The position numbers and the translations under genes were made by a program. The notes under the pieces are model-generated. The model saw only the letters and a program-made list of their open reading frames with translations. It ran no database searches and was not told where the DNA came from. Positions 4,243-58,978 of a stretch of 64,000 nucleotides of DNA are shown one piece after another. The stretch covers positions 153,792 through 217,791 of the forward strand of contig JAWABJ010000001.1 in assembly GCA_038884755.1 (NCBI GenBank), in the 5' to 3' direction. Numbering within the stretch: position 1 is the stretch's first letter; each line of letters begins with the position of its first letter. This stretch comes from Candidatus Norongarragalinales archaeon (GTDB lineage Archaea > Micrarchaeota > Micrarchaeia > Norongarragalinales > Norongarragalinaceae).

Positions 4243-6054
4243 ATGAAGCACGCTGGGGTTTTTGTCGACGGGAAGTTCGTGGGTTTCGCCGAGAACGGCG
4301 AGAAGCTCGCAAGGGAATTGCGGGAAATGCGCAGGGCCGGCGACGTGCACTCGCAAATCAACATCGCTTTTTATGCGAAAACCAACGAGGTTTTCATAAA
4401 CACCGACGAGGGCCGCGTGCGAAGGCCTTTGATCGTGGTGAAAAACGGAAAGCCGTTGCTTTCGAAAGAGCAGGCTGACAAGCTCGAGAAAGGCGAATTG
4501 CATTGGAAGAACCTGGTGGAACAGGGGCTGATCGAGTTTTTGGATGCTGAAGAGGAGGAGAACGCTTTCGTGGCGCTTAAGCCGGAAGACGTCACGCCCG
4601 ACCACACGCACTTGGAAATAGACCATTCTATGATTCTCGGCTTCGCTTCTTCGCAGCTTCCGTATCCCGAGTACAACATGGCGCCCAGGGTTTTGATGTC
4701 GGCGCAGCACGCGAAGCAGAGCTTGGGCCTTTATGCTTCCAACTTCAATTTGCGAAGCGATACGCGCGCGCACGTTTTGTTCTACCCGCAACAGCCGTTG
4801 CTGCAAACCAGCGCGTACCGCAACTTGCGCTTGAACAAGCGGGCTTCAGGCCAAAACCTCGTGGTCGCCGTCCTTTCCTACAAGGGCTTCAACATGAACG
4901 ACGCGGTGGTGTTGAACAAGACGAGCGTCGAGCGAGGCATAGGGCGCAGTGCTTTCATACGCACTTACGGCGCCGTCGAAAGGCGTTATCCAGGCGGGCA
5001 GAAGGATTCGTTCGGGATTCCCGAAGAGTACGTGCAGGGTTTCCTCGGGGAAGAGGCTTACGCTCATTTGGACGAAGACGGCTTTGCAGCGCCTGAAACT
5101 GTGGTCAAAGGCAACGCCGTTCTGGTTGGAAAGTCTTCGCCGCCCAGGTTTTTGAAGGAAATTTCGGCTTTGGAAATGGAGAGCGAACGCAGGCGGGAGT
5201 CGAGCGTAACCGTGCGGGGCAACGAAGAAGGCACTGTTGATGCGGTTATTCTGAGCGAAACGACTTCCGGGAACAAGATGGTCAAGATTCGCGTGCGCAA
5301 CACCAACATTCCTGAAGTGGGAGACAAGTTCGCTTCGCGCCACGGGCAAAAAGGCGTTGTTTCCATCCTCGTTCCGCAGGAAGACATGCCTGCCACGAAA
5401 GACGGGATTACTCCCGACTTGATAATCAACCCGCACGCAATTCCCGGCAGAATGACCGCCGGGCATTTGCTTGAAATGCTCGGGGGCAAGGCGAGCGCGT
5501 TGAAGGGAAGCATAGGTGACGCGACTGCGTTTTCCGGAGATAAGCAGGCGGATTTCGAGAAAGTCTTGCTGCAAAACGGTTTCGAGGCTGCGGGGCAGGA
5601 AGTGCTTTACGACGGCAAGACCGGCGAACGCCTGTACGCAAAGATTTTCATGGGAGTAATTTACTACCAACGCTTGCACCATCTGGTTTCCCTCAAGATG
5701 CACGCTCGCTCGCGCGGGCCGGTGCAAATGCTCACCCACCAGCCGACCGAAGGCCGCGCTCGCGAGGGCGGATTGCGTTTGGGTGAAATGGAAAGGGATT
5801 GTTTCATTGGTTACGGTGCAGCGTCGCTTTTGAAGGAAAGGATGATGGACTCGAGTGACAAGACTGTGGAGTTGGTGTGCGCGAATTGCGGTTCGCTGGC
5901 GTATACCGACAGGCAGAAGAACAAGAGCTATTGCGCGTTGTGCGAGAGCAGCGACATACAGCCTGTCGAAATGAGCTACGCGTTCAAGCTTTTGCTTGAT
6001 GAGATGAAGTCCATAGGAATATTTCCGAAACTGCGTCTTGGAGACCGGGCTTAA
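4243..6054 (+). CDS. rpoB1: DNA-directed RNA polymerase subunit B' (C-terminal half of split RpoB)
   Basis: 603 aa. It contains the conserved GDKFASRHGQKG and QPTEGRAREGGLRLGEMERDC motifs and a C-terminal Zn ribbon CANCG...CALC. Confidence 0.95.
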   Translation: MKHAGVFVDGKFVGFAENGEKLARELREMRRAGDVHSQINIAFYAKTNEVFINTDEGRVRRPLIVVKNGKPLLSKEQADKLEKGELHWKNLVEQGLIEFLDAEEEENAFVALKPEDVTPDHTHLEIDHSMILGFASSQLPYPEYNMAPRVLMSAQHAKQSLGLYASNFNLRSDTRAHVLFYPQQPLLQTSAYRNLRLNKRASGQNLVVAVLSYKGFNMNDAVVLNKTSVERGIGRSAFIRTYGAVERRYPGGQKDSFGIPEEYVQGFLGEEAYAHLDEDGFAAPETVVKGNAVLVGKSSPPRFLKEISALEMESERRRESSVTVRGNEEGTVDAVILSETTSGNKMVKIRVRNTNIPEVGDKFASRHGQKGVVSILVPQEDMPATKDGITPDLIINPHAIPGRMTAGHLLEMLGGKASALKGSIGDATAFSGDKQADFEKVLLQNGFEAAGQEVLYDGKTGERLYAKIFMGVIYYQRLHHLVSLKMHARSRGPVQMLTHQPTEGRAREGGLRLGEMERDCFIGYGAASLLKERMMDSSDKTVELVCANCGSLAYTDRQKNKSYCALCESSDIQPVEMSYAFKLLLDEMKSIGIFPKLRLGDRA

Positions 6055-6064
6055 GGGTGGAAAA

Positions 6065-9000
6065 ATGAAGGTCGTAAAAGCAATTGGTTTTTCGATATAC
6101 TCGCCTGAGAACGTGCGTAAGATGAGCGCCGCGAAAATCACCGTTCCAGACACTTACGACGAGGACGGCTACCCCATCAGCGGGGGCCTGGCAGACCAGC
6201 GCTTGGGCGTTGTAGACCCCGGCTTGAAGTGCCGCACGTGCGGAGGAAGGATGAAAGACTGTCCCGGGCACTCGGGGCACATCGAGCTCGTGAGGCCGGT
6301 GATTCACGTCGGTTTCGCAAAGCTCATTTACAATTTGCTGAAAGCCACTTGCAGGAAATGCGGAAGGCTCATGCACTACGCTTCGCGCGTCGAGGAAGCC
6401 AAAAAATCGCTGGAATGCCCGCATTGTGGCGAGAAGCAGAGGAAAGTCAAGTTCGTAAAGCCCAGCGCTTTTTACGAGGAAGACCGCAAGCTCTTTCCCA
6501 ACGAAATCAGAGAGCGTTTGGAGCACATTCCTGACGATGACTTGCGCACGTTGGGCGTTGCAATTCGCCCCGAGTGGGCAGTGCTCACCGTTTTGATAGT
6601 CCCTCCAGTCACAGTCCGCCCTTCTATCACTCTCGAAACTGGGGAAAGGAGCGAGGACGATTTGACGCACAAGCTCGTGGACATTCTTCGAATCAACCAG
6701 CGTTTGGAAGAGAATATCGACGCGGGCGCGCCGCAGCTTATAATAGAAGACTTGTGGGAATTGCTGCAATACCACGTTACCACTTACTACGACAACGAGA
6801 CTTCCGGAATTCCTCCTGCGCGACACCGTTCGGGGCGCCAGCTTAAGACTTTGTTCCAGCGTTTGAAGGGCAAGGAAGGGCGCTTTCGCTACAATCTCAG
6901 CGGAAAGAGGGTAAACTTTTCGGCCCGCACCGTGATTTCTCCCGACCCAACGCTGGGAATAAACGAGTTGGGCGTGCCGATGGAAATTGCGAGAGAGCTT
7001 ACCGTTCCGGTCAGCGTGACGCAATGGAATTTGGAGAACGTGAAGGAAATGATTCGCGCTCGCGCCGAGGCCATAAATTACGTAATCCGCCCAGACGGGA
7101 AGAGGAAGAAAATCACTACCGCCAACATAGAAGAGGTTTTGACCGAGCTTACGCCGGGCTATACTGTGGAAAGGCAGCTGTTCGACGGCGACGTAGTGAT
7201 ATTCAACAGGCAGCCTTCCCTCCACCGCGTTTCGATGTTGTGCCATGAAGTCAAGGTTTTGCCTGGAAAAACGTTCCGCTTTAACGTCGCAAATTGCAAC
7301 CCGTACAATGCCGACTTCGACGGAGATGAAATGAACATTCACGTTCCGCAGACTGAAGAGGCGCAGGCTGAAGCCGAACTGCTGATGAAAGTTCAGGATA
7401 ACATCCTCTCGCCGCGCAACGGCTCTCCGCTTATCGCGCCCGACTTGGACCAAATCACGGGATTGTATTTGCTTTCGCTCGACGATTTCGTTGTTACTAA
7501 AAAGGAAGCTTGCAATTTGCTTAACGCAGCTGGAGTGGATGGCGCGTTGGAAAAAAGCTTGGTGAGCGGCAAGGAAATTTATTCCATGATATTGCCTGAA
7601 AAGTTCGACTTGGAGCTTGAAGGCAAGGGTGGAAACAAAGTCCGCATAAAGAACGGGAAGCTCACCGAAGGGTTTTTGGACGCGCACGCCAACCGCACCG
7701 TCGTGAGACGAATTTTCGACGAGTTTGGGAGTGAGGAAGCTCGAAAGTACGTTGACAAGGCGACCAAGCTTTCGGTCGAGCTTGCATACCGCTACGGGTT
7801 TTCGCTGAGCTTGAAGGACTATTACTTGCCCGAATCGGCGATTGCGGAAATAACCAAGCTTTACGACGAGGGCAGGCAGCGGCTCGTAGAGCTCGTGAGG
7901 AAATACAAGACCAGGAAGCTTGAACGGCTTCCGGGAAAGACGCTCAAGGAAACTCTCGAAGAGCAGGTAATGAACATCGTCGAACTCATACGCTTCCACT
8001 GCTGGACTATAGTCAAGGAAAAAATTTCTAAAACCGCCGTAGAAATTAACGGCAGGCAGTTCGAGCACAATTCTTCCCTGCTCATGGCACAGGCCGGGGT
8101 GAAGAACAAGCCCATCAACGTCGTGCAGATGACCGCGCTGGTGGGACAGCAGGCCGTCCGCGGAAAGAGGCCCGCCGCAGGATTCAAGAAAAGGCTTTTG
8201 CCGCACTTCAGGCGTGGCGATTTGGGCGACGCGGCGCGCGGTTTCGTCAAAAACAATTACAAGAGCGGGTTGAATGCCGTCGAGTATTTCTTCCACGCTG
8301 CGGGAGGAAGGGACAGCGTGGTCGACAAGGGAGTTAACCCGGCAAAGACTGGTTACATGCAACGCCGTCTCATTAATGCATTACAGGATTTGATCGTAAA
8401 GGAAGACGCGAGCGTCAGGGACAGCGAAGGAAAAATAGTACAGTTCAAGTACGGCGGGGACGGAATCGACCCTTCGACTGGAAAGCAAATCGCTTACGGC
8501 GAGCCTGTCGGGGTTATCGAGGCGCAGAGCATCGGCGAGCCCGGAACTCAAATGACTTTGCGCACTTTCCACTATGCCGGCGTAGCTTCGCTGGCGCAAT
8601 TCGGCTTCACGCGTTTGGTAGAGTTGGTGGACGCCCGCAAATCGCCGAAAAAGCCGGTCATGGAAATTTGCCTGAAGAAAAGCATTGCAGGCGATTTCGA
8701 GAAAGTCAAGACGATAGCTGCCAGCATCGAAAGCGTGGTTTTGGAGGACGTTGCGGAAACCAAGGAGAATTTCGACCGGAAGGCGATTACCATAACCCTC
8801 AACCCATTGCTGCTCAAGGACAAGGGAATCCGCGAAAAGGCGATTTTGGACGAGATTGGTAAAATAACCCCCAACTTCAAGCACGAAGGACACGAGATTG
8901 TGATTAAAACGAAGGAAGAGTCCCTCAAGGCCGTACGTAAGTTGACTCTACGCTTCAAGGAATTGCATTTGGGCGGAGTCAAGGGAATAAGGAAAGCGAT

Positions 9001-9472
9001 TATCGTGGAAAAGAAGACCGAAGGCGGGAAGGAGTACACCATCGCAACCGAAGGCTCTAATCTCGAAGACATTCTCAAGCTGGAAGAAATAGACTCTCAC
9101 CGCACGAGCACGAACGACATCATGGAAATAGGGCGCGTTCTCGGGATAGAAGCGGCGCGAAACGCGATTATCCAGGAAATAAAGAAAGTGTTGGACACGC
9201 AGGACTTGACTGTCGACGAAAGGCACATAATGCTCATCGCCGACGCCATGACTTTCTTGGGCGGAGTGAAGAGCGTTGGAAGGCACGGGCTTGCAGGGCA
9301 AAAGAAAAGCGTGCTTGCGCGCGCGGCGTTCGAAGAGACCGCAAAGCATTTGCTGAACGCATGCATTTACGGAGAGGAAGACCCGCTGAAAGGCATAGCG
9401 GAAAACATCATCATCGGGCAAACAATCCCTGCTGGAACCGGCACAGTGCAACTGGAAATGAAGCTCGAGTGA
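6065..9472 (+). CDS. rpoA: DNA-directed RNA polymerase subunit A, unsplit (A' and A'' regions in one reading frame)
   Basis: About 1135 aa from MKVVKAIGFSIYSPENVRKMSA. N-terminal Zn motifs CRTCGG...CPGHSGH and catalytic NADFDGDEMN are present. Reading continues without a stop through the A'/A'' junction (...KYGGDGIDPSTGKQIAYGEPVGVIEAQSIGEPGTQMTLRTFHYAGV...) to the A''-type C-terminus IIGQTIPAGTGTVQLEMKLE. Confidence 0.9.
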   Translation: MKVVKAIGFSIYSPENVRKMSAAKITVPDTYDEDGYPISGGLADQRLGVVDPGLKCRTCGGRMKDCPGHSGHIELVRPVIHVGFAKLIYNLLKATCRKCGRLMHYASRVEEAKKSLECPHCGEKQRKVKFVKPSAFYEEDRKLFPNEIRERLEHIPDDDLRTLGVAIRPEWAVLTVLIVPPVTVRPSITLETGERSEDDLTHKLVDILRINQRLEENIDAGAPQLIIEDLWELLQYHVTTYYDNETSGIPPARHRSGRQLKTLFQRLKGKEGRFRYNLSGKRVNFSARTVISPDPTLGINELGVPMEIARELTVPVSVTQWNLENVKEMIRARAEAINYVIRPDGKRKKITTANIEEVLTELTPGYTVERQLFDGDVVIFNRQPSLHRVSMLCHEVKVLPGKTFRFNVANCNPYNADFDGDEMNIHVPQTEEAQAEAELLMKVQDNILSPRNGSPLIAPDLDQITGLYLLSLDDFVVTKKEACNLLNAAGVDGALEKSLVSGKEIYSMILPEKFDLELEGKGGNKVRIKNGKLTEGFLDAHANRTVVRRIFDEFGSEEARKYVDKATKLSVELAYRYGFSLSLKDYYLPESAIAEITKLYDEGRQRLVELVRKYKTRKLERLPGKTLKETLEEQVMNIVELIRFHCWTIVKEKISKTAVEINGRQFEHNSSLLMAQAGVKNKPINVVQMTALVGQQAVRGKRPAAGFKKRLLPHFRRGDLGDAARGFVKNNYKSGLNAVEYFFHAAGGRDSVVDKGVNPAKTGYMQRRLINALQDLIVKEDASVRDSEGKIVQFKYGGDGIDPSTGKQIAYGEPVGVIEAQSIGEPGTQMTLRTFHYAGVASLAQFGFTRLVELVDARKSPKKPVMEICLKKSIAGDFEKVKTIAASIESVVLEDVAETKENFDRKAITITLNPLLLKDKGIREKAILDEIGKITPNFKHEGHEIVIKTKEESLKAVRKLTLRFKELHLGGVKGIRKAIIVEKKTEGGKEYTIATEGSNLEDILKLEEIDSHRTSTNDIMEIGRVLGIEAARNAIIQEIKKVLDTQDLTVDERHIMLIADAMTFLGGVKSVGRHGLAGQKKSVLARAAFEETAKHLLNACIYGEEDPLKGIAENIIIGQTIPAGTGTVQLEMKLE

Positions 9473-11610: not shown

Positions 11611-13566
11611 ATGGTTTTGCGAGCGCACCAGAAGTTAAGCGTATTGTTTTTTTCCGTTCTAGCAATAGCTTTGCTTTTCACGGCGTTTTCCAACGAAAGT
11701 TCTTCCTACTCGGGACAGTCGCGTTCGCTTTCGTTCGAGAAAGCGAGTGCTTCCCCTGAAGGTTCTGCCAGCCCTTCTCCGAGCGGAGAGGCGAGCCCTA
11801 CTGGTGTTGCTTCGCCTTCCGCATCTGCTTCTCCGACTTGCTCTCCGCCTCCTGGCGGTTGTGGAAGCCGCTGTACGAGTTCTACCGAACGGGTGAGCAG
11901 GGTTTGGGACCAGAACGCTTGCGCTTGCGTTGACGACGGGCCTTTGCCGTCGTGCGCTTGCGGCAATGGGGCGGAGTGCAGCACGTGCTATTGCGAGGAC
12001 GTTACTTACAACGGCGTTCCTGCTGCAGTGTGCCGTTCTACTGGCGGTGATTGCGGAAACCCGTATTGCGCGAGCGGAAGCAGGAGCTGCCAGGACGTTT
12101 GCGGCGCGAACGGTTTTTGCGAGCCGAGGTGCAACAATTGCGCAGGACCAAACGGGTGGAATTGCTACGCGGAATCATGCAATTCTGGCACTGGTCGTTG
12201 CTCGCAGGATTGTTCTTTGACAGACGGCACTACCCCCGGATTATGCGGGACCGCCGGATTTCCCTGTTCTAAAAACAAGCGTTGCCAGAGTTGCGAGTGC
12301 GCTTGGGAGCCTTTGAACTGTTGTCCCGGCAACGCGCCGGCTTGCTTGGAGTGCGTTAATTTCTATCAATTCATACGCCATTACTGCAATCCCGTGACCG
12401 AGTCCTGCAGCCAGGACGGCCCGTATTCCTGCCCGCCGAGTTTTTGCGGTTCAGACCCGTGGTTCGGCTACGGGAACGCTTGCACTTACTGGGACTTTTT
12501 GGGTTGCACGCAAAGGGGTTTGGGCATAGCTTGCCCCTACTTTTCCAACTTGCAGCCCGACCCGCGTTGCGGGTCTCGGTGCGTGGGTGGTTCTCCCACT
12601 CCGACAGCTTCCCCTTCGCCTTCCAACACTCCTTCGCCTTCGGTTTCCCCGCCACCTTGCATTTACAATTGCATAAACGGTTTTTGTTCGAACGACCCGA
12701 ACCGTTCTTGCCAGTATAACGGCGATTTCAGGTGTTGCGTTGAAGTGAGCGCAAGCCCTTCTCCCTACGCTTCCCCTTCGCCTTCCAACACTCCTTCGCC
12801 TTCGGGCAGTCCTTCTCCCAGCGGCAGTCCGTCGCCTTCGCCTTCCAACACTCCTTCGCCTTCGGGCTCCGCCTCCCCGTCTAGCTCTCCTTCTGCAAGT
12901 CCTTCCGTTTCAGGCTCTCCTTCCGGCAGTCCTTCGCCTTCCGCCAGCGTGGGTGGTTCTCCCAGCCCTTCAAACGGAGGAGCCGGTTTTTGCGGCGACA
13001 GGATAATCCAGCCTCCTGAAGAGTGCGATACTGACGACGGCGTGTGCAAAATTCGCGGTCCGACTTACGCTTGCAGCGTGGCTTGCGAGTGTTTTGATGC
13101 GGAAGGGTTTTACGGCGGGATAGTGAAGCTTCCTGACGTGAAAATAGTGAGCGGAACGCAGGTTGAAAGCGCTGAACTCGCAGTGTTATACAACCACGCT
13201 TCAGACGGGTTGGGTGCAAGCGAAGGCGACATAGGCAATTTCTTTTCGATTTTGGTTGACGACAGGAATATAATTACGCAGTGCTTGGAGCAAGAGCCCG
13301 CTTGCCTGCGCTACGGCGGCGAACCAGGGGTTTTCGTTCTCACGCTTTCGCCGCAGTTGCTTGGCTTGCAGTCTCAAGAGCTTCCAGAAGGTTCTTACCG
13401 AATCAAGGCCATAGTGCGCGAAAACGGGGTTTTCTACGAGGCGAACGCGCCCAACGCGCTAATAGTGCAGAGGCAGGAAACCTCGCTGCCCGAAACCGAC
13501 TTTCTCGTCGTGTTGTTTTTCGCCTTGCTCGCGGCGTTCGCAATGCGCACTTCGCGGAAGCGATAG
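11611..13566 (+). CDS. large Cys-rich cell-surface protein with Ser/Pro linkers and an LPETD-TM-basic C-terminal sorting-signal-like tail
   Basis: 651 aa with a signal peptide and more than 60 Cys. S/P/T linkers (SPSPSNTPSPSGSPSPS...). A Myxococcus-type Cys repeat FCGDRIIQPPEECD. The C-terminus is ...RQETSLPETDFLVVLFFALLAAFAMRTSRKR. Confidence 0.7.
   Translation: MVLRAHQKLSVLFFSVLAIALLFTAFSNESSSYSGQSRSLSFEKASASPEGSASPSPSGEASPTGVASPSASASPTCSPPPGGCGSRCTSSTERVSRVWDQNACACVDDGPLPSCACGNGAECSTCYCEDVTYNGVPAAVCRSTGGDCGNPYCASGSRSCQDVCGANGFCEPRCNNCAGPNGWNCYAESCNSGTGRCSQDCSLTDGTTPGLCGTAGFPCSKNKRCQSCECAWEPLNCCPGNAPACLECVNFYQFIRHYCNPVTESCSQDGPYSCPPSFCGSDPWFGYGNACTYWDFLGCTQRGLGIACPYFSNLQPDPRCGSRCVGGSPTPTASPSPSNTPSPSVSPPPCIYNCINGFCSNDPNRSCQYNGDFRCCVEVSASPSPYASPSPSNTPSPSGSPSPSGSPSPSPSNTPSPSGSASPSSSPSASPSVSGSPSGSPSPSASVGGSPSPSNGGAGFCGDRIIQPPEECDTDDGVCKIRGPTYACSVACECFDAEGFYGGIVKLPDVKIVSGTQVESAELAVLYNHASDGLGASEGDIGNFFSILVDDRNIITQCLEQEPACLRYGGEPGVFVLTLSPQLLGLQSQELPEGSYRIKAIVRENGVFYEANAPNALIVQRQETSLPETDFLVVLFFALLAAFAMRTSRKR
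12742..12979 (+). repeat. low-complexity Ser-Pro-encoding repeat tract (linker) inside the 11611 gene
   Basis: Reiterated GCTTCCCCTTCGCCTTCC-like units encode (A/G)SPSPS(N/G)TPSPSGS. A shorter tract lies at 12595-12667. Confidence 0.7.
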
Positions 13567-13615: not shown

Positions 13616-14170
13616 ATGGGCGCGGAGAAAATAATCCTTGTGGCGGCTTTGCTTTTCGTGGTTATCGCTTTGTTTGTCTGGCAGCCGTTCCGCCCGCCTT
13701 TACCTTCGCCAACGCCTTCGGTTTTGATTCCAACACCGACGGCTTCTATTCCTTCGCCAGTAGACTTGCAGGCTGAATGTAACAAGAAGCTTTCCGACGC
13801 AATACGCTTGTTCAGCCCTGGCGCGTGTGAACAGATTTCCTGCGAAGAGCAGAAGAATTACTGCTTGGGAGTGCTGGGGAAGGACGTGCAGGCTTGCGAA
13901 AAGCTTGAAACGCAAGATTACAAGGACGTTTGCTACGGCAACATGGCTTCGAAATTAAAGGCGAGGGAATTGTGCGACAGGATTGCGAACGGCGACAGGA
14001 AAAACTATTGCTTGTTGGGCTTCGACCCGAAGGAATCTTATTGTGATGCTATGGTTTTGCACTCGTTCAAGGACAATTGCTACCACCGGCTTGCGATAGT
14101 GTTGAAAGACGCTTCTTATTGCGAGAAGATAAGTAGTAATTCCACCAGGGCGCGTTGCGCTGGTCGATGA
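13616..14170 (+). CDS. membrane-anchored/secreted Cys-rich protein (184 aa), hypothetical
   Basis: N-terminal TM IILVAALLFVVIALFVW, then a PSPTPS linker, then repeated (K/R)NYC.../DVCYGN Cys motifs. Confidence 0.55.
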   Translation: MGAEKIILVAALLFVVIALFVWQPFRPPLPSPTPSVLIPTPTASIPSPVDLQAECNKKLSDAIRLFSPGACEQISCEEQKNYCLGVLGKDVQACEKLETQDYKDVCYGNMASKLKARELCDRIANGDRKNYCLLGFDPKESYCDAMVLHSFKDNCYHRLAIVLKDASYCEKISSNSTRARCAGR

Positions 14171-16026
14171 AAATGCGTTTTCTTGCTTTCGCCTTTGTTT
14201 TTGCCTTCGCGCTTTTTGCGCAGCAGGGCTTTTCCCAAGGCGTTCCCATGTGTCCTGGCAATGGAAACAATTTCGAGTGCCCGCCTTGCAACGAGCCTTG
14301 CTCGATTCCCGTCGGTCCGCCGGAGTGCTGCGCTTGGAACCCCAACGCAGGTCCCGAATGCCAAGGCGTTTTGCCCGCGTGCATGGTTTGCGCGGTTGCC
14401 ATTCAAGCCGCTCCTGCTTCCAACCTCAACTTTTGCACTTCCTCCGGCTACGAAGCTAAAGCTTTGGAGGGAGTTGTTCCCGCGCAACGCGCTTTGATTT
14501 CCTTGGCTGAAACTTGCCCTGATACTGTGACGACAGTCCCTTGCAACAACAAGTTTGGAGACTGCTGCTTGTGCGACGGCACGCTCATGACTTATCAAGG
14601 AGATGAGGAAACCCTCCGCTGCCTGCCGGGCACGTGCGAGCCTGGGGTGAGCGAATGCAATTTCGAAAACCAGGGTTTCAGGTGCGAGGCTGACGCCATT
14701 CCCAACGGCTGCACTCCAGACCCGAACGTTTGCGCTTCCCCTTCTCCATCACCTTCGCCCAGCCCCTCTCCAAGCCCTTCCCCCAGCGCTTCGCCCAGCC
14801 CTTCGGCTTCTGCCTCTCCAAGCCCCTCGCACACGATTTGCTCCTTGGGTTCGTGTATTGTCGTTCAAGGTCCTGGTCCGAATTATTGTTTTTCAAACTC
14901 CGATTGCGTTGAGCCGTCGCACACGATTTGCTGGCTAGGGCAATGCATTTCAATCCAAGGCCCAGGCCCGAACTATTGCAGTTCTAACGCGAATTGCGTT
15001 TCGCAATCGCACACCATATGCTCCAACCAGCAGTGCATTTCTGTTGTAGGCCCCGGCTCGAACCAGTGTTCTTCCAACAGCCAGTGCGGTTCGGCTTCGC
15101 CTTCCCCCAGCCCAGGCGGCTCTCCTTCCCCAAGCGGTTCTCCCACTCCCTCGGGCAGTCCTTCTCCTAGCGGCAGTCCCTCGCCTTCCGGTTCTCCTTC
15201 GCCTAGCGGAAGCCCGTCTCCAAGCGGTTCTCCTTCTCCCTCAGGGTCTCCCAGCCCTTCCGGCTCGCCCAGCCCCTCCGGTTCTCCTTCGCCTTCGGGC
15301 AGTCCTTCTCCCAGCGGAACTCCGTCGCCTTCGCCTTCCAATACGCCGTCCCCTTCGGGCTCCGCTTCGCCTTCGGGTTCTCCGAGCGGCAGCCCCAGTT
15401 CTTCCCCGTCTTCTTCACCCAGCTCGTCTCCAAGCGGTTCTCCAGGCGGAGGGTATTGCGGAAACGGGGTGATAGACCCGGGCGAGGTTTGCGACAAGGC
15501 CAACAACGCCGGATGCGCGCAAGGGGAATTCTGCAACTTCGACTGCAGCGCTTGCTTCTCGCCAGGTTCGCCTGAAGGAAGCATACTGCGCATCGAAGGA
15601 AAGCGCGTGATTGGCGGGGAGGAAATCCAGGCTGCGACAGTGCCGATTTTGTACAATACCGCGGCAACCGGGCTTGCCGCCCCTTGCAGCGAGCAGGTCA
15701 AGGGCAGTTTGTTGTTCACGATAGACGACGCGCGTTTGGGAAGCATTCCCGAGGCGTTGTCTTGCGACTCTTCAAAACCCGGGGTTTTCATTCTCACGCT
15801 TTCGCCGCAGTTGCTGGGATTGCAGTCGCAAGAGCTTCCTTCCGGAAGCTACCGCGTGAAAGTAGAGGTTGACGAGGGAGGGACGGTTTACAGCGCGAAC
15901 GACCCGCAGGCTTTGATTGTAGTAAAACAAAAGCAGGCTTTGCCTGAAACGGATTTCCTCGTCGTATTGTTCTTCGGCTTGCTTGCCTTGCTTTTCGTGC
16001 GCAGCGGCACGCGCCGCAACGAGTAA
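14155..16026 (+). CDS. large Cys-rich cell-surface protein, paralog of 11611..13566, with an LPETD-TM-basic C-terminal tail
   Basis: 623 aa with a signal peptide. It has three tandem HTIC-x-LG-x-C-I-x-[VI]-x-GPGPNYC-x-SN-x-x-C modules and long (GSPSPS)n linkers. A YCGNGVIDPGEVCD repeat is present. The C-terminal module is near-identical to the 11611 protein, ending ...KQKQALPETDFLVVLFFGLLALLFVRSGTRRNE. Confidence 0.7.
   Translation: MRWSMKMRFLAFAFVFAFALFAQQGFSQGVPMCPGNGNNFECPPCNEPCSIPVGPPECCAWNPNAGPECQGVLPACMVCAVAIQAAPASNLNFCTSSGYEAKALEGVVPAQRALISLAETCPDTVTTVPCNNKFGDCCLCDGTLMTYQGDEETLRCLPGTCEPGVSECNFENQGFRCEADAIPNGCTPDPNVCASPSPSPSPSPSPSPSPSASPSPSASASPSPSHTICSLGSCIVVQGPGPNYCFSNSDCVEPSHTICWLGQCISIQGPGPNYCSSNANCVSQSHTICSNQQCISVVGPGSNQCSSNSQCGSASPSPSPGGSPSPSGSPTPSGSPSPSGSPSPSGSPSPSGSPSPSGSPSPSGSPSPSGSPSPSGSPSPSGSPSPSGTPSPSPSNTPSPSGSASPSGSPSGSPSSSPSSSPSSSPSGSPGGGYCGNGVIDPGEVCDKANNAGCAQGEFCNFDCSACFSPGSPEGSILRIEGKRVIGGEEIQAATVPILYNTAATGLAAPCSEQVKGSLLFTIDDARLGSIPEALSCDSSKPGVFILTLSPQLLGLQSQELPSGSYRVKVEVDEGGTVYSANDPQALIVVKQKQALPETDFLVVLFFGLLALLFVRSGTRRNE
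15085..15450 (+). repeat. tandem 18-nt repeat array (GGTTCTCCTTCGCCTAGC-like), about 18 units, encoding (GSPSPS)n
   Basis: The period-18 unit is visible directly in the nucleotides at 15120-15310. Each copy differs by synonymous or near-synonymous changes. Confidence 0.8.
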
Positions 16027-17551: not shown

Positions 17552-19489
17552 TCACTTCCGCTTGACTTCGTAAATTTCGTAGTCTAAGTCGTTTATTGTT
17601 TTTTTGTATATTAACTTGAAAAGCGGGGAGGCGCGTATCGCGGTTTCGTTCAGCCCTTTGAACCTGCGTTCGTTGCTGGGAATGAGTGAAACGTGCGTTA
17701 TGCCGTATTTCCTTATGACTTCGTCCATTCTTTTTCCCGAGTAGAAGTCGTATTGGTTTGTCGCCCGTTCGTACCAATCGCTTCTTCCCTTGACCCACCC
17801 TACCGCGGGAAACCCGAGCATTCTTACCCTGCCTACGAGGTCGAAAGCGTGAGGGCCGTCGAAAGCGATGACGACCGCGTCAGGCGGGAGGATTGCATTC
17901 GCGTCTTTCGCGAATTCTATGTCGGCGCGTCCGTAGAGCGAAAGCTGGTTCCAAGCGTCCTTCTGGATTGAAAGGGCGCCCGGGAGTATTGCCGCTGCCA
18001 GAATAACAACCGCTGCCGCAGGCGGAATGAAGTTTAGCAAAGCCGTTTCGTTTTTTTTTCCTTTGCGCACTGGAAACCGGAATTCGAAAAGCCGTGCGAG
18101 GGCGATTGCCCCCAAAGCAAAAGTAGGAATTTGCCACAGGTTGACGAGCTTCATGTTGTTCATGTAGTCGGGCGAAAAGCGGAACATGCTGAACGCAAGG
18201 AAAAGCGGAACGAACGCAACGTAATACTTGCGCACGGTTTTTGGGGAAGTGAAAAACGCGCTTAGCGCGAGCAGCAGGGGAAGCCCCATGTTTTGCACCC
18301 AAAACCACGCTATGTCGACGGGGTTTTGCGAAAGCGCCCTCCACCCTATTTCCAACGCCACGTAACTGTTGGAAGTGGAGGGCTCGAGCCACGCGTACGT
18401 TTGCACCGCGCCCAAAACCAAGGCGGGCGCGAAAAACCACGCCCATTTCCTGCTCCTGTAAATCACGAACAGTGCGCCTGCGGTCAGCACGCACGCTATG
18501 AACGCGGCTTCACGCATTAGCGGAAGAAAGCCCGCGAGTACCCCGCTCGCGAAAAGCATTTTGTTCAACCGCTTTTGTTGCCTTTCGGGAGTTTTCGCGG
18601 TCTCGAACTGCCTGGCTATTTCGAAAAGCATTATGAACACGACTACCGCGACGGTATACCCGAAGTTGCTTGCCCTCTGCCTCGCCAAGTGCGATTTGAA
18701 AAACTGGATTATGTGGCCCACCCACGGGTTTTCTATCAGCGCGGCGTAATCCCTGTCCGGATTTTCAAGCCACTCGCCTACGCTCGCGTGCTTTTGCGCG
18801 TCTTCAAGCATCATTCCGTAAGACATGCTGCCGGAGAAAAAGAGGAACAAGACGGCGACGATTGCCGCGTTTTTGCTTGAACCCAAGCGAAACGCGAGGA
18901 AGTAGACGCACGCGAAAAACGCGATTATCATTATCAGTGCCGGGACTGCGAACGCGAGAGTGAAAGGCATTTCAAGCCTTTCCAGCACTCCCGAGTACAA
19001 GTCTATCAAGAACGGGTAGTTGAGCGGAACGCCTGCGTACTGCGGGTCTTGCGGAGGCACTATGTGATTGTATGCAAAGTATTTCTCGATGTTGACGTGG
19101 TAGTACGTGTCCTGCCAGAACAACGCGCTCACTTCGTAATTCAAGCTCTTGTTCACGTGCACTGCGCCGTACGAAAACAAGACTATTATAAGGAGTATTA
19201 CGGGCGCCATTCTCAGCCAAAACCCGGAGTCCCACCCTTTTTCGAAAGCGCGCCCTCCCCCTCCCCGCAGCAACGCGACCGCAGCCATTGCAAGAGCAGC
19301 AAGCGCGGCGTAGTGCGCTTGCGCGCCGAAAGCGAAAAAAGAGGCGTAAGCCACGACCGAAGCGAGCGGCAGGCCTATCGCAATCGAAAAGAAGATTTGC
19401 TCTTCGCGAGTTTTCGCAAGCCCGATTTTCTTTTCTACTGCAAACCCGAAGAGTATAGAGAACAGGATAAAAAGAATGCCGAGAATCAT
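17552..19489 (-). CDS. large polytopic membrane protein, GT-C-like glycosyltransferase candidate (paralog A)
   Basis: 645 aa with about 13 TM helices and a roughly 120-aa C-terminal soluble domain. It is a paralog of 35793..37670 (for example LFASGVLAGFLPLMREAAF...RSRKW versus LFAAGVLAGLLPLAHAHS...SVRKW). It is co-oriented with the Dol-P-sugar synthase. Confidence 0.55.
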   Translation of the reverse strand: MILGILFILFSILFGFAVEKKIGLAKTREEQIFFSIAIGLPLASVVAYASFFAFGAQAHYAALAALAMAAVALLRGGGGRAFEKGWDSGFWLRMAPVILLIIVLFSYGAVHVNKSLNYEVSALFWQDTYYHVNIEKYFAYNHIVPPQDPQYAGVPLNYPFLIDLYSGVLERLEMPFTLAFAVPALIMIIAFFACVYFLAFRLGSSKNAAIVAVLFLFFSGSMSYGMMLEDAQKHASVGEWLENPDRDYAALIENPWVGHIIQFFKSHLARQRASNFGYTVAVVVFIMLFEIARQFETAKTPERQQKRLNKMLFASGVLAGFLPLMREAAFIACVLTAGALFVIYRSRKWAWFFAPALVLGAVQTYAWLEPSTSNSYVALEIGWRALSQNPVDIAWFWVQNMGLPLLLALSAFFTSPKTVRKYYVAFVPLFLAFSMFRFSPDYMNNMKLVNLWQIPTFALGAIALARLFEFRFPVRKGKKNETALLNFIPPAAAVVILAAAILPGALSIQKDAWNQLSLYGRADIEFAKDANAILPPDAVVIAFDGPHAFDLVGRVRMLGFPAVGWVKGRSDWYERATNQYDFYSGKRMDEVIRKYGITHVSLIPSNERRFKGLNETAIRASPLFKLIYKKTINDLDYEIYEVKRK

Positions 19490-19752: not shown

Positions 19753-19911
19753 AAAACTTTTTCGCAAAAAGTTTTCTTTTTCCGAATCTTTCTTTGTTGA
19801 AGCGTTCTTTTCTTTACTCAATTTTTCTTTTCCTAAAAGAAAAATTGGAGGGCTCGGTAGTCGTAATCTCATCATTCCGTTTTTTGATCAAACTTTTTAT
19901 AAAAAAGTTTG
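19753..19911 (+). repeat. three AT-palindromic hairpins in the L14e-cbf5 spacer (members of the window-wide hairpin family)
   Basis: 19753-19775 AAAACTTTTTCGCAAAAAGTTTT; 19819-19847 CAATTTTTCTTTTCCTAAAAGAAAAATTG; 19889-19911 CAAACTTTTTATAAAAAAGTTTG. Confidence 0.7.
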
Positions 19912-20912: not shown

Positions 20913-21040
20913 GTTTTTTTGCGCATCGAAAGGGTTTTTAAATCGGTGTAGAATAGTGTTATACTGGAAAATTAAAGGCTCACGGAGCTCTCTGTTTTTC
21001 CCGAAGGTTTTTAACCGCGAGAAAGCAAATTCTTTCTTGC

Positions 21041-21236
21041 GCCGGGATGGCAGAGTGGTTAATGCGCACGCTTGGAAAGTCTTTTTCTGGTTGCTCTTTT
21101 TCGAGCGTACCGAAAACTTCCCTTACAGCGTGTGGCCGAAAGGCCTCCTGAGTTCGAAAGCTTTTCTTTCTTTGCAAAAGAAAGAAAACCTTGGAAAAGA
21201 AAGAAAACGCGAGAGACGAGATTCTCAGTCCCGGCG
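21041..21236 (+). tRNA. tRNA-Ser (anticodon GGA), type II, with two introns (about 49 nt at 37/38 and about 64 nt in the T-loop)
   Basis: Acceptor GCCGGGA/TCCCGGC plus discriminator G; D-arm GCA/TGC; anticodon stem CACGC/GCGTG with loop TTGGAA|A; long variable arm T-GGCC-GAAA-GGCC-TC; T-arm CTGAG-TTCGAA|T-CTCAG. Intron 1 spans about 21078-21126 and intron 2 about 21160-21223. Confidence 0.7.
21162..21188 (+). repeat. hairpin-family copy inside the T-loop intron of tRNA-Ser
   Basis: CTTTTCTTTCTTTGCAAAAGAAAGAAAA, followed by CCTTGGAAAAGAAAGAAAACG. Confidence 0.7.
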
Positions 21237-24041: not shown

Positions 24042-24042
24042 T

Positions 24043-24085
24043 TGAATTTTTCTTTTAGAAAAAGAAAAATTCAGTAAAGAAAAAC
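24043..24085 (+). repeat. hairpin-family copy immediately 3' of tRNA-Leu
   Basis: TGAATTTTTCTTTTAGAAAAAGAAAAATTCA, followed by GTAAAGAAAAACG. Confidence 0.75.
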
Positions 24086-25648: not shown

Positions 25649-25721
25649 GGGGCTGTGGGGTAGCCTGGTATCCTGCATGGCTGGGGGCCATGCGACCTGA
25701 GTTCGAATCTCAGCAGCCCCA
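25649..25721 (+). tRNA. tRNA-Pro (anticodon GGG), intron-less
   Basis: Acceptor GGGGCTG/CAGCCCC plus A; D GGGT/ATCC; anticodon stem CATGG/CCATG with loop CTGGGGG; T-arm CTGAG-TTCGAAT-CTCAG. A T10 tract follows. Confidence 0.85.
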
Positions 25722-28012: not shown

Positions 28013-28194
28013 GCGGCGATGGTCTAGTGGTATGATCCGAGCCTTCCATTGAATTTTTCTTTTTTTTTACAAAAAAAGAAAAATTCAGTAAAGAAAAAAC
28101 TTTCAGGAAAGCTTGAGGCCCGGGTTCGATAGGGGCGAAACTGCGTTTCTCCCTCTTCCTTTCGGAAAAGGTGCCGAAAATCCCGGTCGCCGCA
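28013..28194 (+). tRNA. tRNA-Gly (anticodon TCC) with two introns (61 nt at 37/38 and about 50 nt in the T-loop)
   Basis: Acceptor GCGGCGA/TCGCCGC plus A; anticodon stem CGAGC/GCTTG (G-U pair) with loop CTTCCA|A; T-arm CCGGG-TTCGA|AT-CCCGG. Intron 1 spans about 28049-28109 and intron 2 about 28130-28179. A T10 tract follows the gene. Confidence 0.65.
28050..28100 (+). repeat. hairpin-family copy inside the anticodon-loop intron of tRNA-Gly (contains a T9 run)
   Basis: TGAATTTTTCTTTTTTTTTACAAAAAAAGAAAAATTCA, followed by GTAAAGAAAAAAC. It is nearly identical to the copy 3' of tRNA-Leu. Confidence 0.75.
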
Positions 28195-35369: not shown

Positions 35370-35532
35370 GGGCCTTTAGTATAGCCTGGATAGAATAGGG
35401 GCTTCCGAAGCCTCAGACAGGGGTTCGAAGACCGCCTTTTCTTTTTAGAAAAAGAAAATGCGGTCGGCCGAAAAGAAAACGGTCGTCAGTCTCAAAGAAG
35501 CGCGGACTAGAACGGAAATCCCCTAAGGCCCG
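35370..35532 (+). tRNA. tRNA-Arg (anticodon CCG) with an 89-nt T-loop intron; D-arm imperfect
   Basis: Acceptor GGGCCTT/AAGGCCC plus G; anticodon stem GGGGC/GCCTC with loop TTCCGAA; T-arm AGGGG-TTCGAA|T-CCCCT with the intron at about 35430-35518. The D-stem pairs poorly. Confidence 0.5.
35430..35480 (+). repeat. hairpin-family copy at the 5' end of the tRNA-Arg(CCG) T-loop intron
   Basis: GACCGCCTTTTCTTTTTAGAAAAAGAAAATGCGGTC, followed by GGCCGAAAAGAAAACGG. Confidence 0.7.
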
Positions 35533-35614: not shown

Positions 35615-35734
35615 GGGCCCGTGTGGTAATGGACAACCGGCGGGGCTTCGGACCCCGAGTTGCGCGTTCGAAGAACCTTTCTTTGCGAAAGAAAGCTTTG
35701 CCAAAGAAAGGCAGCGAAAATCGCGCCGGGCCCG
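35615..35734 (+). tRNA. tRNA-Arg (anticodon TCG) with a 48-nt T-loop intron
   Basis: Acceptor GGGCCCG/CGGGCCC plus G; D TGGT/ACCG; anticodon stem CGGGG/CCCCG with loop CTTCGGA; T-arm GCGCG-TTCGAA|T-CGCGC with the intron at 35673-35720 containing the hairpin CTTTCTTTGCGAAAGAAAG. Confidence 0.65.
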
Positions 35735-35737
35735 CTT

Positions 35738-35784
35738 AAACTTTCTTTTTTTTGCGAAAAAAGAAAGTTTAATCAAAGAAAAAG
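35738..35784 (+). repeat. hairpin-family copy 3' of tRNA-Arg(TCG), also 9 nt upstream of the 35793 gene
   Basis: AAACTTTCTTTTTTTTGCGAAAAAAGAAAGTTT, followed by AATCAAAGAAAAAG. Confidence 0.75.
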
Positions 35785-35792
35785 GGAAGGAA

Positions 35793-37670
35793 ATGTTTGT
35801 CGCGCTTTTGTTTCTCTTGAGTTCGCTTTACTCCGGGTTCGTCGCCGCGAAAAAACTCGGCATTCTGGATACCGAAATCAAGCGGCTTTCGATTGGTTTT
35901 CTCGCGGGTTTCGTGCTGCAAAGCGCGTTTTTGCTCGCGCTGTCGTGGCTTTCCGGCGGGCTTGAGGAGCAATGGATTCTGCTTTCGTCGGTTGTTTTCG
36001 TTTTGGCCGCTTTCGCTTTCGACAGGCGTTTCGCCGTTGCGAGATTGAGGGAAAGGAGGCTTCCTTTCGTTTCCAACGCGGACAGGATTGCCCTCGCTTT
36101 TTCCCTGTTGTTTCTTGCCTTGAATTTCCTTGCAATCCTGCATCCCACGCAAACCGGCTTCGAGTCTGTGGCGAGCGTTTGGGGGGATTATCCCCTGCAT
36201 TTGAGCATAGCGAATTCCTTCGCATTGCGGGACAATTTTCCGCCGCAATACCCCGTTTTGCTGGGAGAGCCTTTGAAATACTCTTTCCTGTTCGACTTCA
36301 GTTCCGCAATACTGTTGAAAGGCGGTTTCGACTTCCGTTCGGCATTCCTTGTGCCAAACGCCTTGGTTTTCGTGGCTTTCGCGCTGGCGCTGGTGCTGTT
36401 GTGCGAGCTTTTCGCCGGAAGCAAGGGAAGGGTTTTGTTCGTTTTCCTGGCTTTCGCATTGTTTTTCTTCAACGGGAACTACGGGATGGCGGGCGCGCTT
36501 GAAGACGCTTTTTCGCAGGGAAGCCTGTCGCCGCTTTTGCACCCCGACCGCAATTATTCCAACGCAGACGACAAGGGCGTGGTGGTGATGAACTGGGTTT
36601 ACTCCATTCTCATGCCGGCGAGAAGCGCTTTGTTGGGCCTGGCAATTTCGGTTTTCACTTACGCCGTGCTTTTCTCGAGCGTGTTGAATTCGCGTTGGAA
36701 CAGGCGGGAGCTTTTTGCAGCGGGCGTTTTGGCCGGGCTTTTGCCTCTAGCCCACGCGCACTCGCTAGTGGTTGTTGGTGCGGTTGCCGGGTTTTTGTTC
36801 CTGTTTTCCGTGCGAAAGTGGAAAGAGTGGGTTTTTTTCGCCGGTCCCGCCGCAGTTATTGCCTTGCCGCAGTTGGCTTGGCTTTCTTCCAAGGTTTTCT
36901 TCAAAATTTTTCCCGGTTGGCTTTCGCCGGAAAAAAGCTTTCTAGGTGTTGCAGAGTTTTGGGTCAAGAATGGGTGGGCCGTGCTCCTTTGCTTTGCGGC
37001 TTGGCTTGCGTTCGCTTTGAAAAGCAATGACTGGAAAAGACTGGCTCTCGCCGCTCCCTTCGCCTTGGTTTTCGTGCTTGCGAACCTCTTCGTGCTTCAA
37101 CCGTGGGAGTGGGACAACACCAAGTTTTTCATGCAATTCTTTCTTTTCGCCTGCATTGCAAGCGCGTTGTTCCTGGAGTCGCTGTGGACGGCACAAGGAA
37201 AACAACGAATTTTGCACAAGGCGGTCGTTGTCGTGATAGTGCTTTTGGGAGTTGCGTCGGGAGTGCTGGCAATATTGTGGACCGGCTGGGGGGACAACGC
37301 GCGTTACGAGACGTTCTCGAAAGAGGACGTTGCGCTTGCTGCATGGATAACTGTCAACACGCCTAGCGGCGCGTTGTTTTTGAGTTCCACTTTCCACCAT
37401 AATCCAGTGCCTGCTCTGGCCGGAAGGCAGATTGTGGCCGGGTACGAAGGCTGGCTGTGGAGCCACGGGCTAAACTACCAAAAGACTTTGCAGGACGCCA
37501 AGAAAATGTTCGAAGAGGCGGACTGCCGTTTGATGGGCGAGTACGGAGTTGATTTCGTGCTTGTAAGAAAAACGTGGGAGGATGCGGCGTTGTACGAAGG
37601 AAAAGGTTTCGAAAGGGTTTATTCCGACCGACGCGGGAACATGGTTTTCAAGTCCAATTGCATTGCATAG
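35793..37670 (+). CDS. large polytopic membrane protein, GT-C-like glycosyltransferase candidate (paralog B)
   Basis: 625 aa, collinear paralog of 17552..19489: shared HPDRNY, LFAAGVLAGLLPL and VRKWKEW blocks, and the same C-terminal soluble domain. Confidence 0.55.
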   Translation: MFVALLFLLSSLYSGFVAAKKLGILDTEIKRLSIGFLAGFVLQSAFLLALSWLSGGLEEQWILLSSVVFVLAAFAFDRRFAVARLRERRLPFVSNADRIALAFSLLFLALNFLAILHPTQTGFESVASVWGDYPLHLSIANSFALRDNFPPQYPVLLGEPLKYSFLFDFSSAILLKGGFDFRSAFLVPNALVFVAFALALVLLCELFAGSKGRVLFVFLAFALFFFNGNYGMAGALEDAFSQGSLSPLLHPDRNYSNADDKGVVVMNWVYSILMPARSALLGLAISVFTYAVLFSSVLNSRWNRRELFAAGVLAGLLPLAHAHSLVVVGAVAGFLFLFSVRKWKEWVFFAGPAAVIALPQLAWLSSKVFFKIFPGWLSPEKSFLGVAEFWVKNGWAVLLCFAAWLAFALKSNDWKRLALAAPFALVFVLANLFVLQPWEWDNTKFFMQFFLFACIASALFLESLWTAQGKQRILHKAVVVVIVLLGVASGVLAILWTGWGDNARYETFSKEDVALAAWITVNTPSGALFLSSTFHHNPVPALAGRQIVAGYEGWLWSHGLNYQKTLQDAKKMFEEADCRLMGEYGVDFVLVRKTWEDAALYEGKGFERVYSDRRGNMVFKSNCIA

Positions 37671-39927: not shown

Positions 39928-40578
39928 TTACTTCTTGCGCAAAACCAAAAACAAGTGGTCTTGCTCGAACGGCTCCAAGGGGATTTCCTGCTCGATTTCG
40001 AAAGCCTCGGAAAGGGTTTTTTTCACTTTCGCGTACACGCGCGCAGGTTCTTCGACGGAATTTATTGCGCGTGACTTGATTGCAATCAGCGCATAACCCC
40101 CTTTCGCGAGAAAACGGGAGTTCGCGTTGAGTATTTCCGCCTGCTGGGGGTCTGCAACATCCTCGAAAACCACATCGACAGAGCCGATTTCCTCGTAATT
40201 CTCGGGCTTGCGCGCGTCGGCAAGGATGGGTATCATGTTGCCCCGTTTTTCGCACACGCTGATTAAATCGCGCATGGCGATGGGTGCTACTTCAATGCAG
40301 TAAACTTCCCCTTTGCTTCCCACTATGTCGCTTACGAACGAGGGCGTGGCGCCGTGTGCTGCGCCCAAATAAAGGACTTTAGACCCTTTGGTTATGGGCA
40401 TGTGCTTGATGCCTTTCGCAATCGCCGCGCAAAGCTTGCTTTGGTGGGGGTTCCACTCGCGGTATTGAATTCCTTTTTCCTCGACGAGCTTTTCCCCGTG
40501 CACCTTGAATCCTTTGAGGGAATTGCGCGTGTAGAAAAAGCTGTTTTGCGCGTAAATCCCCGGAAAAATTTCTTTCAC
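39928..40578 (-). CDS. flpA: fibrillarin-like rRNA/tRNA 2'-O-methyltransferase
   Basis: 216 aa beginning YREWNPHQSKLCAAIAKGI...KVLYLGAAHGATPSFVSDIVGSKGEVYCIEVAP. It lies directly downstream of nop5. Confidence 0.9.
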   Translation of the reverse strand: MKEIFPGIYAQNSFFYTRNSLKGFKVHGEKLVEEKGIQYREWNPHQSKLCAAIAKGIKHMPITKGSKVLYLGAAHGATPSFVSDIVGSKGEVYCIEVAPIAMRDLISVCEKRGNMIPILADARKPENYEEIGSVDVVFEDVADPQQAEILNANSRFLAKGGYALIAIKSRAINSVEEPARVYAKVKKTLSEAFEIEQEIPLEPFEQDHLFLVLRKK

Positions 40579-40598
40579 GCGTCACAGCACCTGAAGAG

Positions 40599-41578: not shown

Positions 41579-41620
41579 TTAACCACCCTTCCGTAGAAAA
41601 GCAAAATAACCGTTTTAAAA

Positions 41621-41632
41621 CTCTATATAGAG
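41621..41632. promoter_or_regulatory. palindromic TATA element (CTCTATATAGAG) centred about 50 nt from both the glyS ATG and the nop5 GTG
   Basis: A perfect 12-nt palindrome lies midway between divergent genes. It is a candidate shared bidirectional promoter. Confidence 0.4.
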
Positions 41633-41681
41633 TAAGATAGTAGCAGGGCGTTTTTAATCCCCGCGATTGAAGTGTGTTGAA

Positions 41682-56701: not shown

Positions 56702-56760
56702 AAACTTTCTTTTTCGCAAAAAGAAAGTTTGATCAAAGAAAAACGACGCAAAGAAAAACC
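56702..56760 (+). repeat. hairpin-family copy abutting the 5' end of tRNA-Arg(CCT), about 70 nt upstream of the antiporter gene
   Basis: AAACTTTCTTTTTCGCAAAAAGAAAGTTT, followed by GATCAAAGAAAAACG and ACGCAAAGAAAAACC. Confidence 0.75.
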
Positions 56761-58921: not shown

Positions 58922-58978
58922 TAGTGATGATAACTGAACAACCTCTGAACCGATGATGAGGCTGATAGCGTCTGATCC
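58922..58978 (+). ncRNA. candidate C/D box sRNA (2'-O-methylation guide)
   Basis: C box GTGATGA (58924-30); D' CTGA (58945-48); C' TGATGA (58954-59); D box CTGA (58972-75). The D guide is GGCTGATAGCGT (12 nt) and the D' guide TAACTGAACAACCT. It is intergenic, and nop5/flpA are present in the window. Confidence 0.45.

Follow-up and report, generated by a model that had tools for sequence, protein, structure and literature searches.

The interval 21041-21236 (+) of the window, the 64,000-nucleotide stretch of DNA analysed here, is confirmed on its sequence as a real tRNA-Ser(GGA) gene with two introns, one located in the anticodon loop (position 37/38) and the other in the T-loop (position 59/60). 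It is very probably a functional Micrarchaeota tRNA-Ser(GGA), produced from a single precursor from which both introns would be removed by an endonuclease and a ligase. The exon/intron architecture, its conservation among relatives and the pairing at the junctions are direct observations, described below together with the other interrupted tRNA genes of the window and a dispersed repeat that makes up much of the second intron.

The window encodes PolD DP2 and DP1, PolB, Cbf5, fibrillarin, Nop5, ribosomal proteins and RNA polymerase subunits, a gene content which identifies the organism as an archaeon. The cbf5 gene lies directly upstream of the tRNA-Ser gene and the closest relatives of its product (75, 74 and 58% identity) are labelled Candidatus Micrarchaeota; judged by these comparisons, the host is a Candidatus Micrarchaeota (DPANN) archaeon. 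Within the genes of the window, the serine codons UCU and UCC occur with frequencies of 7.9 and 10.9 per 1000, so that a tRNA-Ser(GGA) is needed.

Gene structure and predicted spliced product

The gene is composed of three exons, all read on the forward strand. Exon 1 (21041-21077, 37 nt; GCCGGGA UG GCA GAGUGGUUAA UGC G CACGC UUGGAA) supplies the 5' strand of the acceptor stem, the D arm, the 5' strand of the anticodon stem and the loop residues U32, U33, G34, G35, A36 and A37, and is followed by the 49-nt intron 1 (21078-21126, +) at 37/38. Exon 2 (21127-21158, 32 nt; A GCGUG U GGCC GAAA GGCC UC CUGAG UUCGAA) contains A38, the 3' strand of the anticodon stem, the long variable arm GGCC-GAAA-GGCC, the 5' strand of the T stem and the T-loop residues U54-A59, after which the 64-nt intron 2 (21159-21222, +) intervenes at 59/60. 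Exon 3 (21223-21236, 14 nt; U CUCAG UCCCGGC G) contributes U60, the 3' strands of the T and acceptor stems and G73, while CCA is not encoded.

Joining of the three exons gives an 83-nt molecule which ARAGORN identifies as a type-II tRNA-Ser(GGA), with an acceptor stem of 7 bp, a D stem of 3 bp, and anticodon and T stems of 5 bp each. The variable arm GGCC-GAAA-GGCC and the T-loop UUCGAAU are in place, and U8, U33 and G53-C61 are all present. A preliminary description of this DNA had proposed a type-II tRNA with a GGA anticodon and G73, interrupted at 37/38 and 59/60 by introns of about 49 and 64 nt; ARAGORN bears out the identity, and the sites and lengths hold to the base. When intron 2 alone is deleted, ARAGORN reports Ser(GGA) with a 49-nt intron. 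The unspliced interval 21041-21236 is recognised as a tRNA neither by ARAGORN nor by Rfam, at the gathering threshold or at E<=10, and hence neither tool offers a better intron-less fold, an alternative that the preliminary description had raised. At E<=10, Rfam also returned no partial tRNA matches for any interrupted gene of the window, so that half-hits of covariance models are of no use for finding such genes.

Other kinds of intron and intron content were also considered. Group I and group II introns need some 200 nt or more for their catalytic core and its conserved domains; self-splicing introns of these types were ruled out, as the introns measure 49 and 64 nt and Rfam finds nothing in the region at E<=10. 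Inspection of the sequence of intron 1 revealed no boxes of a C/D-box or H/ACA guide RNA.

The 59/60 junction

The bulge-helix-bulge motif is the substrate of the archaeal splicing endonuclease. In the geometry applied here, each strand consists of a 4-nt helix segment followed by a 3-nt bulge, which is cut after its second base. At the 59/60 site of the window the outer helix is the T stem, with 5/5 pairs, and the central helix is complete (4/4, with one G-U pair), U54·G, U55-A, C56-G and G57-C being formed with the tetramer CGAG at 21217-21220 (+), which provides the intron strand of the helix. The bulges are A58 A59^A on the 5' side and A U^U60 on the 3' side, and the inner helix forms 5/6 pairs in strict register.

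This arrangement was compared across 19 junction-anchored sequences, comprising 16 Ser orthologs and the three other window tRNAs with an intron at the same site. The tetramer matching CGAG reads (C/U)G(A/G)(A/G) in 18 of the 19 junctions, and the central helix is paired in 98.7% of cells. For the model as a whole the paired fraction of cells is 83.5%, and it drops to 28-47% on sliding the partners by 1-3 columns. Changes occur on both sides, in compensatory fashion, at all six pairs of the inner helix, and the covariation score was reached by none of 500 shuffles. The boundary is unique for the product UUCGAAU, and the same T-loop is obtained in every ortholog in the 59/60 register only.

In the lowest-energy fold of intron 2, the strict inner helix faces competition from a long pyrimidine/purine helix, and a 3x6 internal loop results at the 5' site, so that the realistic substrate in the window would be the relaxed hBH form. 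The pairing pattern thus predicts a bulge-helix-bulge motif at the 59/60 junction, or its relaxed hBH form.

The 37/38 junction and intron 1

At the 37/38 junction the outer helix, here the anticodon stem, is complete in the window (5/5), the inner helix is weak and the central helix UUGG/CCUU forms two of its four pairs, two U·U mismatches being followed by two G-C pairs. The preliminary description had suggested a check for bulge-helix-bulge motifs at the exon-intron junctions; at 59/60 the central helix (4/4) and the T stem (5/5) are complete, and the 37/38 junction (2/4) fits the relaxed class at most. Across 18 junctions the 37/38 helix is 72% paired. The pairs beside the 5' bulge (34, 35) almost always hold, and those beside the 3' bulge are formed in just 8 and 10 of the 18 sequences. 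The full 4-bp helix is kept in some orthologs, namely L016 (CUGG/CCAG), L027, L030 and L020, which indicates that the motif appears to have been relaxed in the subclade of the window. Minimum-free-energy folds of intron 1 place the 5' splice site in or beside a helix and not in a 3-nt bulge. A GGAA:UUCC helix (positions 34-37 with n-8..n-5), stabler than the canonical register, was considered and rejected, as a 3' cut there would give a non-tRNA product.

Intron 1 itself folds as a rod-like hairpin around the conserved core GGUUGCUC...GAGCGUACC. This core (21090-21112), of the form GGU(U)GCCC...GGGCGYACC, is seen in every ortholog and covaries, with compensatory changes, in individual folds; it is conserved beyond what cleavage requires of an intron interior. 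The apical insertions vary among the orthologs, leading to an intron of up to 97 nt in L015. RNAalifold on a MAFFT alignment gave a poor consensus for intron 1, with the hairpin misaligned by one column, and individual folds were used instead.

Conservation among relatives

In three of the Micrarchaeota genomes with the closest Cbf5 relatives (L001-L003), tRNA-Ser(GGA) likewise lies downstream of cbf5 and carries both introns. A scan of metagenomes with the exon-2 sequence identified 21 further loci, all with both inserts and none with an uninterrupted T-loop. Genomes and metagenomes together provide 17 distinct orthologs, in all of which (17/17) both introns are found at the same two positions. 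Among these 17 fully dissected sequences, intron 1 varies in length from 45 to 97 nt with a mean pairwise identity of 58%, and intron 2 from 28 to 120 nt with one of 45%. The mean pairwise identity of the exons is 97%, a value somewhat inflated by the collection of orthologs with an exon-2 search pattern and regular expressions for exons 1 and 3. The D stem shows a compensatory change from A12-U23 to G12-C23 in L014, L020 and L021.

Kept exons combined with divergent introns are, as a sequence pattern, that of selection on the spliced product and the opposite of that of a decaying pseudogene. Judged by the orthologs, the pair of 37/38 and 59/60 introns in tRNA-Ser(GGA) is old and stable within the clade, with intron interiors that turn over fast. 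A more distant member of the Micrarchaeota (L004, Cbf5 47% identical) has a Ser(GGA) gene at 4924-5025 with a 13-nt intron in the anticodon loop and an intact T-loop, and the 59/60 intron of Ser(GGA) therefore appears to be specific to a subclade.

Outside the 17 dissected sequences, the T-loop intron measures 15 and 18 nt in L018 and L024, and 178 nt in L011 (2534-2844). The size of the tRNA-Ser T-loop intron hence varies more than tenfold at one orthologous site.

Upstream region

A promoter-like A/T box, GGTTTTTAACC, occupies 21006-21016 (+), 35 to 25 nt upstream of the mature 5' end. A GGTTWWWW box starts 35-37 nt upstream of five tRNA genes of the window (tRNA-Ser and four others), and the orthologs, despite their diverging flanks, retain an A/T-rich box near -30; we infer that the GGTTTTTAACC box acts as a promoter element. 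It is followed by a 5' leader hairpin, CGCGAGAAAG / CTTTCTTGCG (21017-21041, +), the last pair of which uses G1 of the tRNA. RNAfold assigns -12.7 kcal/mol to this hairpin on the identical leader of L010, and its arms covary in close relatives (GAAAAA/UUUUUC in L002, GACGAAC/GUUUGUG in L025). The hairpin may bear on RNase P access or on transcription start.

Alternative explanations

That the interval represents a pseudogene, a tRNA broken by insertions of a dispersed palindromic repeat and left unspliced, is very improbable. Such a reading would draw on the degraded 37/38 motif and on the make-up of intron 2, which is largely a repeat module that is found outside tRNAs too and differs in presence and absence between relatives. 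It does not account for two insertions at identical positions in 17 distinct genomes, for exons that have been kept while introns diverged to 45-58% identity and a D-stem pair changed in compensatory fashion, or for a cleavage-required helix strand at 59/60 conserved in 98.7% of cells; moreover, no other Ser(GGA) was seen, while UCY codons are in use. A split tRNA has been weighed as well. In split, or trans-spliced, tRNAs every piece is transcribed from a promoter of its own, and the pieces are brought together through complementarity between leaders and trailers. No GGTTWWWW promoter-like box is present in either tRNA-Ser intron, which favours one precursor over separately transcribed pieces. 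The pieces are contiguous with an exon 3 of just 14 nt, the introns form intramolecular hairpins, the arms of which covary, and in many orthologs the introns, at 15-35 nt, are too short to house a terminator and a promoter. It is thus highly unlikely that adjacent pieces are transcribed separately and joined in trans with the T-runs of the introns as terminators, even though intron 1 contains two T5 runs, which could serve as archaeal termination signals, and intron 1 of tRNA-Gly(UCC) contains a T5 and a T9 run, resembling the T9 and T10 trailers downstream of tRNA-Pro and tRNA-Gly.

A further alternative retains the two-intron gene and moves the cut of intron 1 from 37/38 to 38/39 or 39/40. 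Intron 1 and exon 2 both begin with AG, so that three boundary pairs, the original one and those shifted by +1 or +2 nt, yield an identical product, and the weak canonical helix leaves the register open. Across all orthologs, however, the product is kept by 37/38 and 38/39 only, which speaks against 39/40. With a cut at 38/39, G39 would fall in the bulge and the anticodon stem would lose its register, which 37/38 alone keeps, and the full 4-bp helix of L016, L027, L030 and L020 is formed in the 37/38 register. A shifted cut is accordingly considered unlikely.

Proposed processing of the precursor

The favoured reading is thus a gene with introns at 37/38 and 59/60, from which one precursor covering 21041-21236 would be transcribed. 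In this precursor, U54-G57 of the T-loop would pair with the CGAG just before the 3' end of intron 2, so that both 59/60 splice sites would lie in 3-nt bulges flanking the 4-bp helix, which would be stacked on the T stem. The 37/38 junction would present a relaxed motif, in which the two pairs beside the 5' bulge are kept and the two beside the 3' bulge are lost. Both junctions would probably need a broad-specificity enzyme, for example the ε2-type EndA known from ARMAN-2, and cleavage would be followed by RtcB-type ligation; we infer that the introns are actually excised in this way. Neither EndA nor RtcB was recognised in the window, where about 50 ORFs were compared with Pfam and two unannotated ones were searched against PDB sequences.

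A dispersed palindromic repeat

Intron 2 is mostly occupied by a repeat module (21161-21208, +), consisting of the pyrimidine arm CUUUUCUUUCUUU (21161-21173), the 3-nt loop GCA, the purine arm AAAGAAAGAAAAC (21177-21189), a 5-nt spacer and a second purine copy (21195-21208). In general form, the repeat is about 43 nt long; a loop of 3-7 nt separates a pyrimidine arm from a purine arm, after which a second purine copy, for example AAAGAAAAAC, follows. A structure-aware regular-expression scan found eight modules in the window against 0.15 in shuffles, located at 21161-21208, 24045-24085, 28054-28100, 35433-35480, 35675-35712, 35739-35785 and 56703-56745 on the forward strand and at 19800-19848 on the reverse strand.

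Four of the eight copies reside in tRNA introns, namely Ser intron 2, Gly intron 1 and the introns of Arg(CCG) and Arg(UCG). Two directly follow tRNA 3' ends (Leu(GAG) and Arg(UCG)), one abuts the 5' end of Arg(CCU) and the remaining one is found in the intergenic region upstream of cbf5. Two subfamilies with near-identical copies can be distinguished, with matches of 37/39 between the Leu trailer and the copy upstream of cbf5, 42/43, plus a 7-nt indel, between Gly intron 1 and the Leu trailer, and 40/42 between the Arg(UCG) trailer and the Arg(CCU) leader. A second palindrome, AAACTTTTTTATAAAAAGTTT followed by GATCAAAAAAC, is present at 19875-19905 (-) in the divergent cbf5 upstream region; it resembles repeat subfamily B and has a TATA-like core.

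The copy in the Leu(GAG) trailer (window 24042-24085), ahead of the next gene, is also present in L015 and is missing from that place in L025, L011, L001, L002 and L013, a distribution which shows that the repeat behaves as an insertion/deletion, not as a conserved signal. Among the relatives, long Ser T-loop introns hold one or two modules and short ones hold none. No copies were found on viral contigs, no target-site duplications are obvious at the repeat copies, no transposase was recognised in the window, and nhmmer with a repeat profile gave no matches. The simplest reading is that the module represents a small dispersed palindromic repeat, MITE- or REP-like, which would accumulate where extra sequence is tolerated. 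A more tentative and rather doubtful proposal is that the ~43-nt repeat builds up, and possibly seeds, long introns, colonising endonuclease-type intron loops as well as tRNA leaders and trailers.

If the repeat also carries or creates a cleavable junction, this would provide a concrete mechanism for the growth and spread of archaeal tRNA introns, which in the Thermoproteales have so far been inferred only, as 'intron transposition'. The module offers a tractable case for how such introns expand.

Other tRNA genes in the window

The preliminary description had claimed the same T-loop site for three more tRNAs of the window, and all three are confirmed. tRNA-Gly(UCC) (28013-28194, +) has introns at 37/38 (28049-28109, 61 nt) and 59/60 (28131-28180, 50 nt), tRNA-Arg(CCG) (35370-35532, +) has an 89-nt 59/60 intron (35430-35518), and tRNA-Arg(UCG) (35615-35734, +) has a 48-nt one (35673-35720). 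The tRNAs Leu(GAG), Pro(GGG) and Arg(CCU) are uninterrupted according to ARAGORN, and 59/60 introns are thus present in four of the seven tRNAs of the window. Intron 1 of tRNA-Gly(UCC), which holds the T5 and T9 runs mentioned above, is nearly all one repeat copy. tRNA-Pro(GGG), located at 25649-25721 in the window without an intron, has in L025 (7589-7716), a close relative, a 54-nt intron in its anticodon loop.

Such genes were sought by deleting every candidate T-loop insert and giving the remainder to ARAGORN, which replaced an earlier, far too permissive scan based on acceptor and T-arm complementarity. This procedure yielded six matches in the window, whereas ten dinucleotide shuffles averaged 0.3; four of the six are the genuine interrupted tRNAs and two are artefacts over the intact tRNA-Leu and tRNA-Pro. 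With the T-loop insert removed, ARAGORN labelled 28013-28194 as Ser(UGA), a label that was rejected because full splicing gives Gly(UCC) with A73. Tyr or Thr labels that ARAGORN gave to half-spliced Ser(GGA) orthologs were also wrong and were mended by full splicing.

These genes are of practical importance for annotation. Standard tools miss four of the seven tRNA genes of the window, and Ser(UCY), Gly(GGR) and two Arg codon sets would seem to be left without a tRNA in such a genome. Apparent gaps of this kind are a frequent reason for rating DPANN genomes as 'incomplete' or 'reduced'.

Relation to known systems

Introns at 59/60 with relaxed motifs, multi-intron tRNAs and an ε2 endonuclease are already known in Micrarchaeota (PMC3239211). 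In ARMAN-2 (Candidatus Micrarchaeum acidiphilum), disruption affects 56% of the tRNA genes (Fujishima et al., 2011, PMC3239211); pre-tRNA-Cys(GCA) has a 13-nt intron at 59/60 in a relaxed hBH (BHL) motif, pre-tRNA-Pro(GGG) has two T-loop introns, and the ε2 endonuclease cleaves such relaxed-motif introns in vitro (PMC3239211). An RNA-bound structure of this enzyme is known (PMC12397907). Reviews count 59/60 among the recurrent non-canonical intron sites and name ARMAN-1 and ARMAN-2 as lineages in which multi-intron tRNAs occur (PMC4090602, PMC4033280). The preliminary description had called T-loop introns rare, which is valid across Archaea but not here, with four of the seven window tRNAs affected and published examples in Micrarchaeota (PMC3239211).

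The window resembles ARMAN-2 in its phylum, the 59/60 site, the relaxed hBH/BHL-type motif, the occurrence of more than one intron per tRNA and the many disrupted tRNA genes (56% there, four of seven here). It differs in the tRNA concerned, Ser(GGA), and in the pairing of sites 37/38 and 59/60, as well as in the length of the introns, 49 and 64 nt with up to 178 nt in relatives, compared with 13 and 25 nt in the tested ARMAN-2 substrates. The introns here, in addition, contain a dispersed palindromic repeat. What is specific to the present case is thus the combination of tRNA and sites, its stability across the clade, the unusually long introns and their content. The established splicing mechanism is left unchanged by the tRNA-Ser(GGA) findings, which show that the heavy disruption of tRNA genes described for ARMAN-2 extends to a broader clade of Micrarchaeota that is non-acidophilic.

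Thermoproteales and other Crenarchaeota likewise have non-canonical sites, including 59/60, and relaxed motifs, with up to three introns per gene (PMC4090602, PMC4033280). Similar intron sequences common to different tRNAs also occur there and have been read as intron transposition (Sugahara et al., 2007/2008; Fujishima et al., 2010; reviewed in PMC4090602, PMC4033280). Crenarchaeota, however, belong to another phylum and use an (αβ)2 heterotetrameric enzyme, whereas the enzyme here is presumably ε2, and the shared sequence of the window is also found outside introns, in tRNA leaders, trailers and intergenic DNA. Canonical 37/38 introns with a strict hBHBh' motif (Marck and Grosjean, 2003, cited in PMC4090602) share their site with intron 1, and the full helix is retained in L016, L027, L030 and L020. 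The subclade of the window, in contrast, is without the two helix pairs beside the 3' bulge, and cutting by a strict-specificity (α4 or α2) enzyme is therefore not expected.

Other features of the window

Six large ORFs of 623-1183 aa are without a Pfam match; they are located at 11611-13566, 14155-16026, 17552-19489 (-), 35793-37670, 43184-45829 (-) and 60120-63671. RNA polymerase subunit A is apparently encoded by a single ORF of 1144 aa (6038-9472, +) with Rpb1 domains 1-5, and subunit B by two ORFs (2767-4233 and 4243-6054, +). Fibrillarin and Nop5 are encoded at 39928-41927. A C/D-box small RNA of textbook archaeal form is present at 58924-58975 (+), composed of GUGAUGA, 13 nt, CUGA, ACC, GAUGAUGA, 12 nt and CUGA; it scores 24.7 bits, which lies under the Rfam gathering thresholds (45 for snoPyro_CD).
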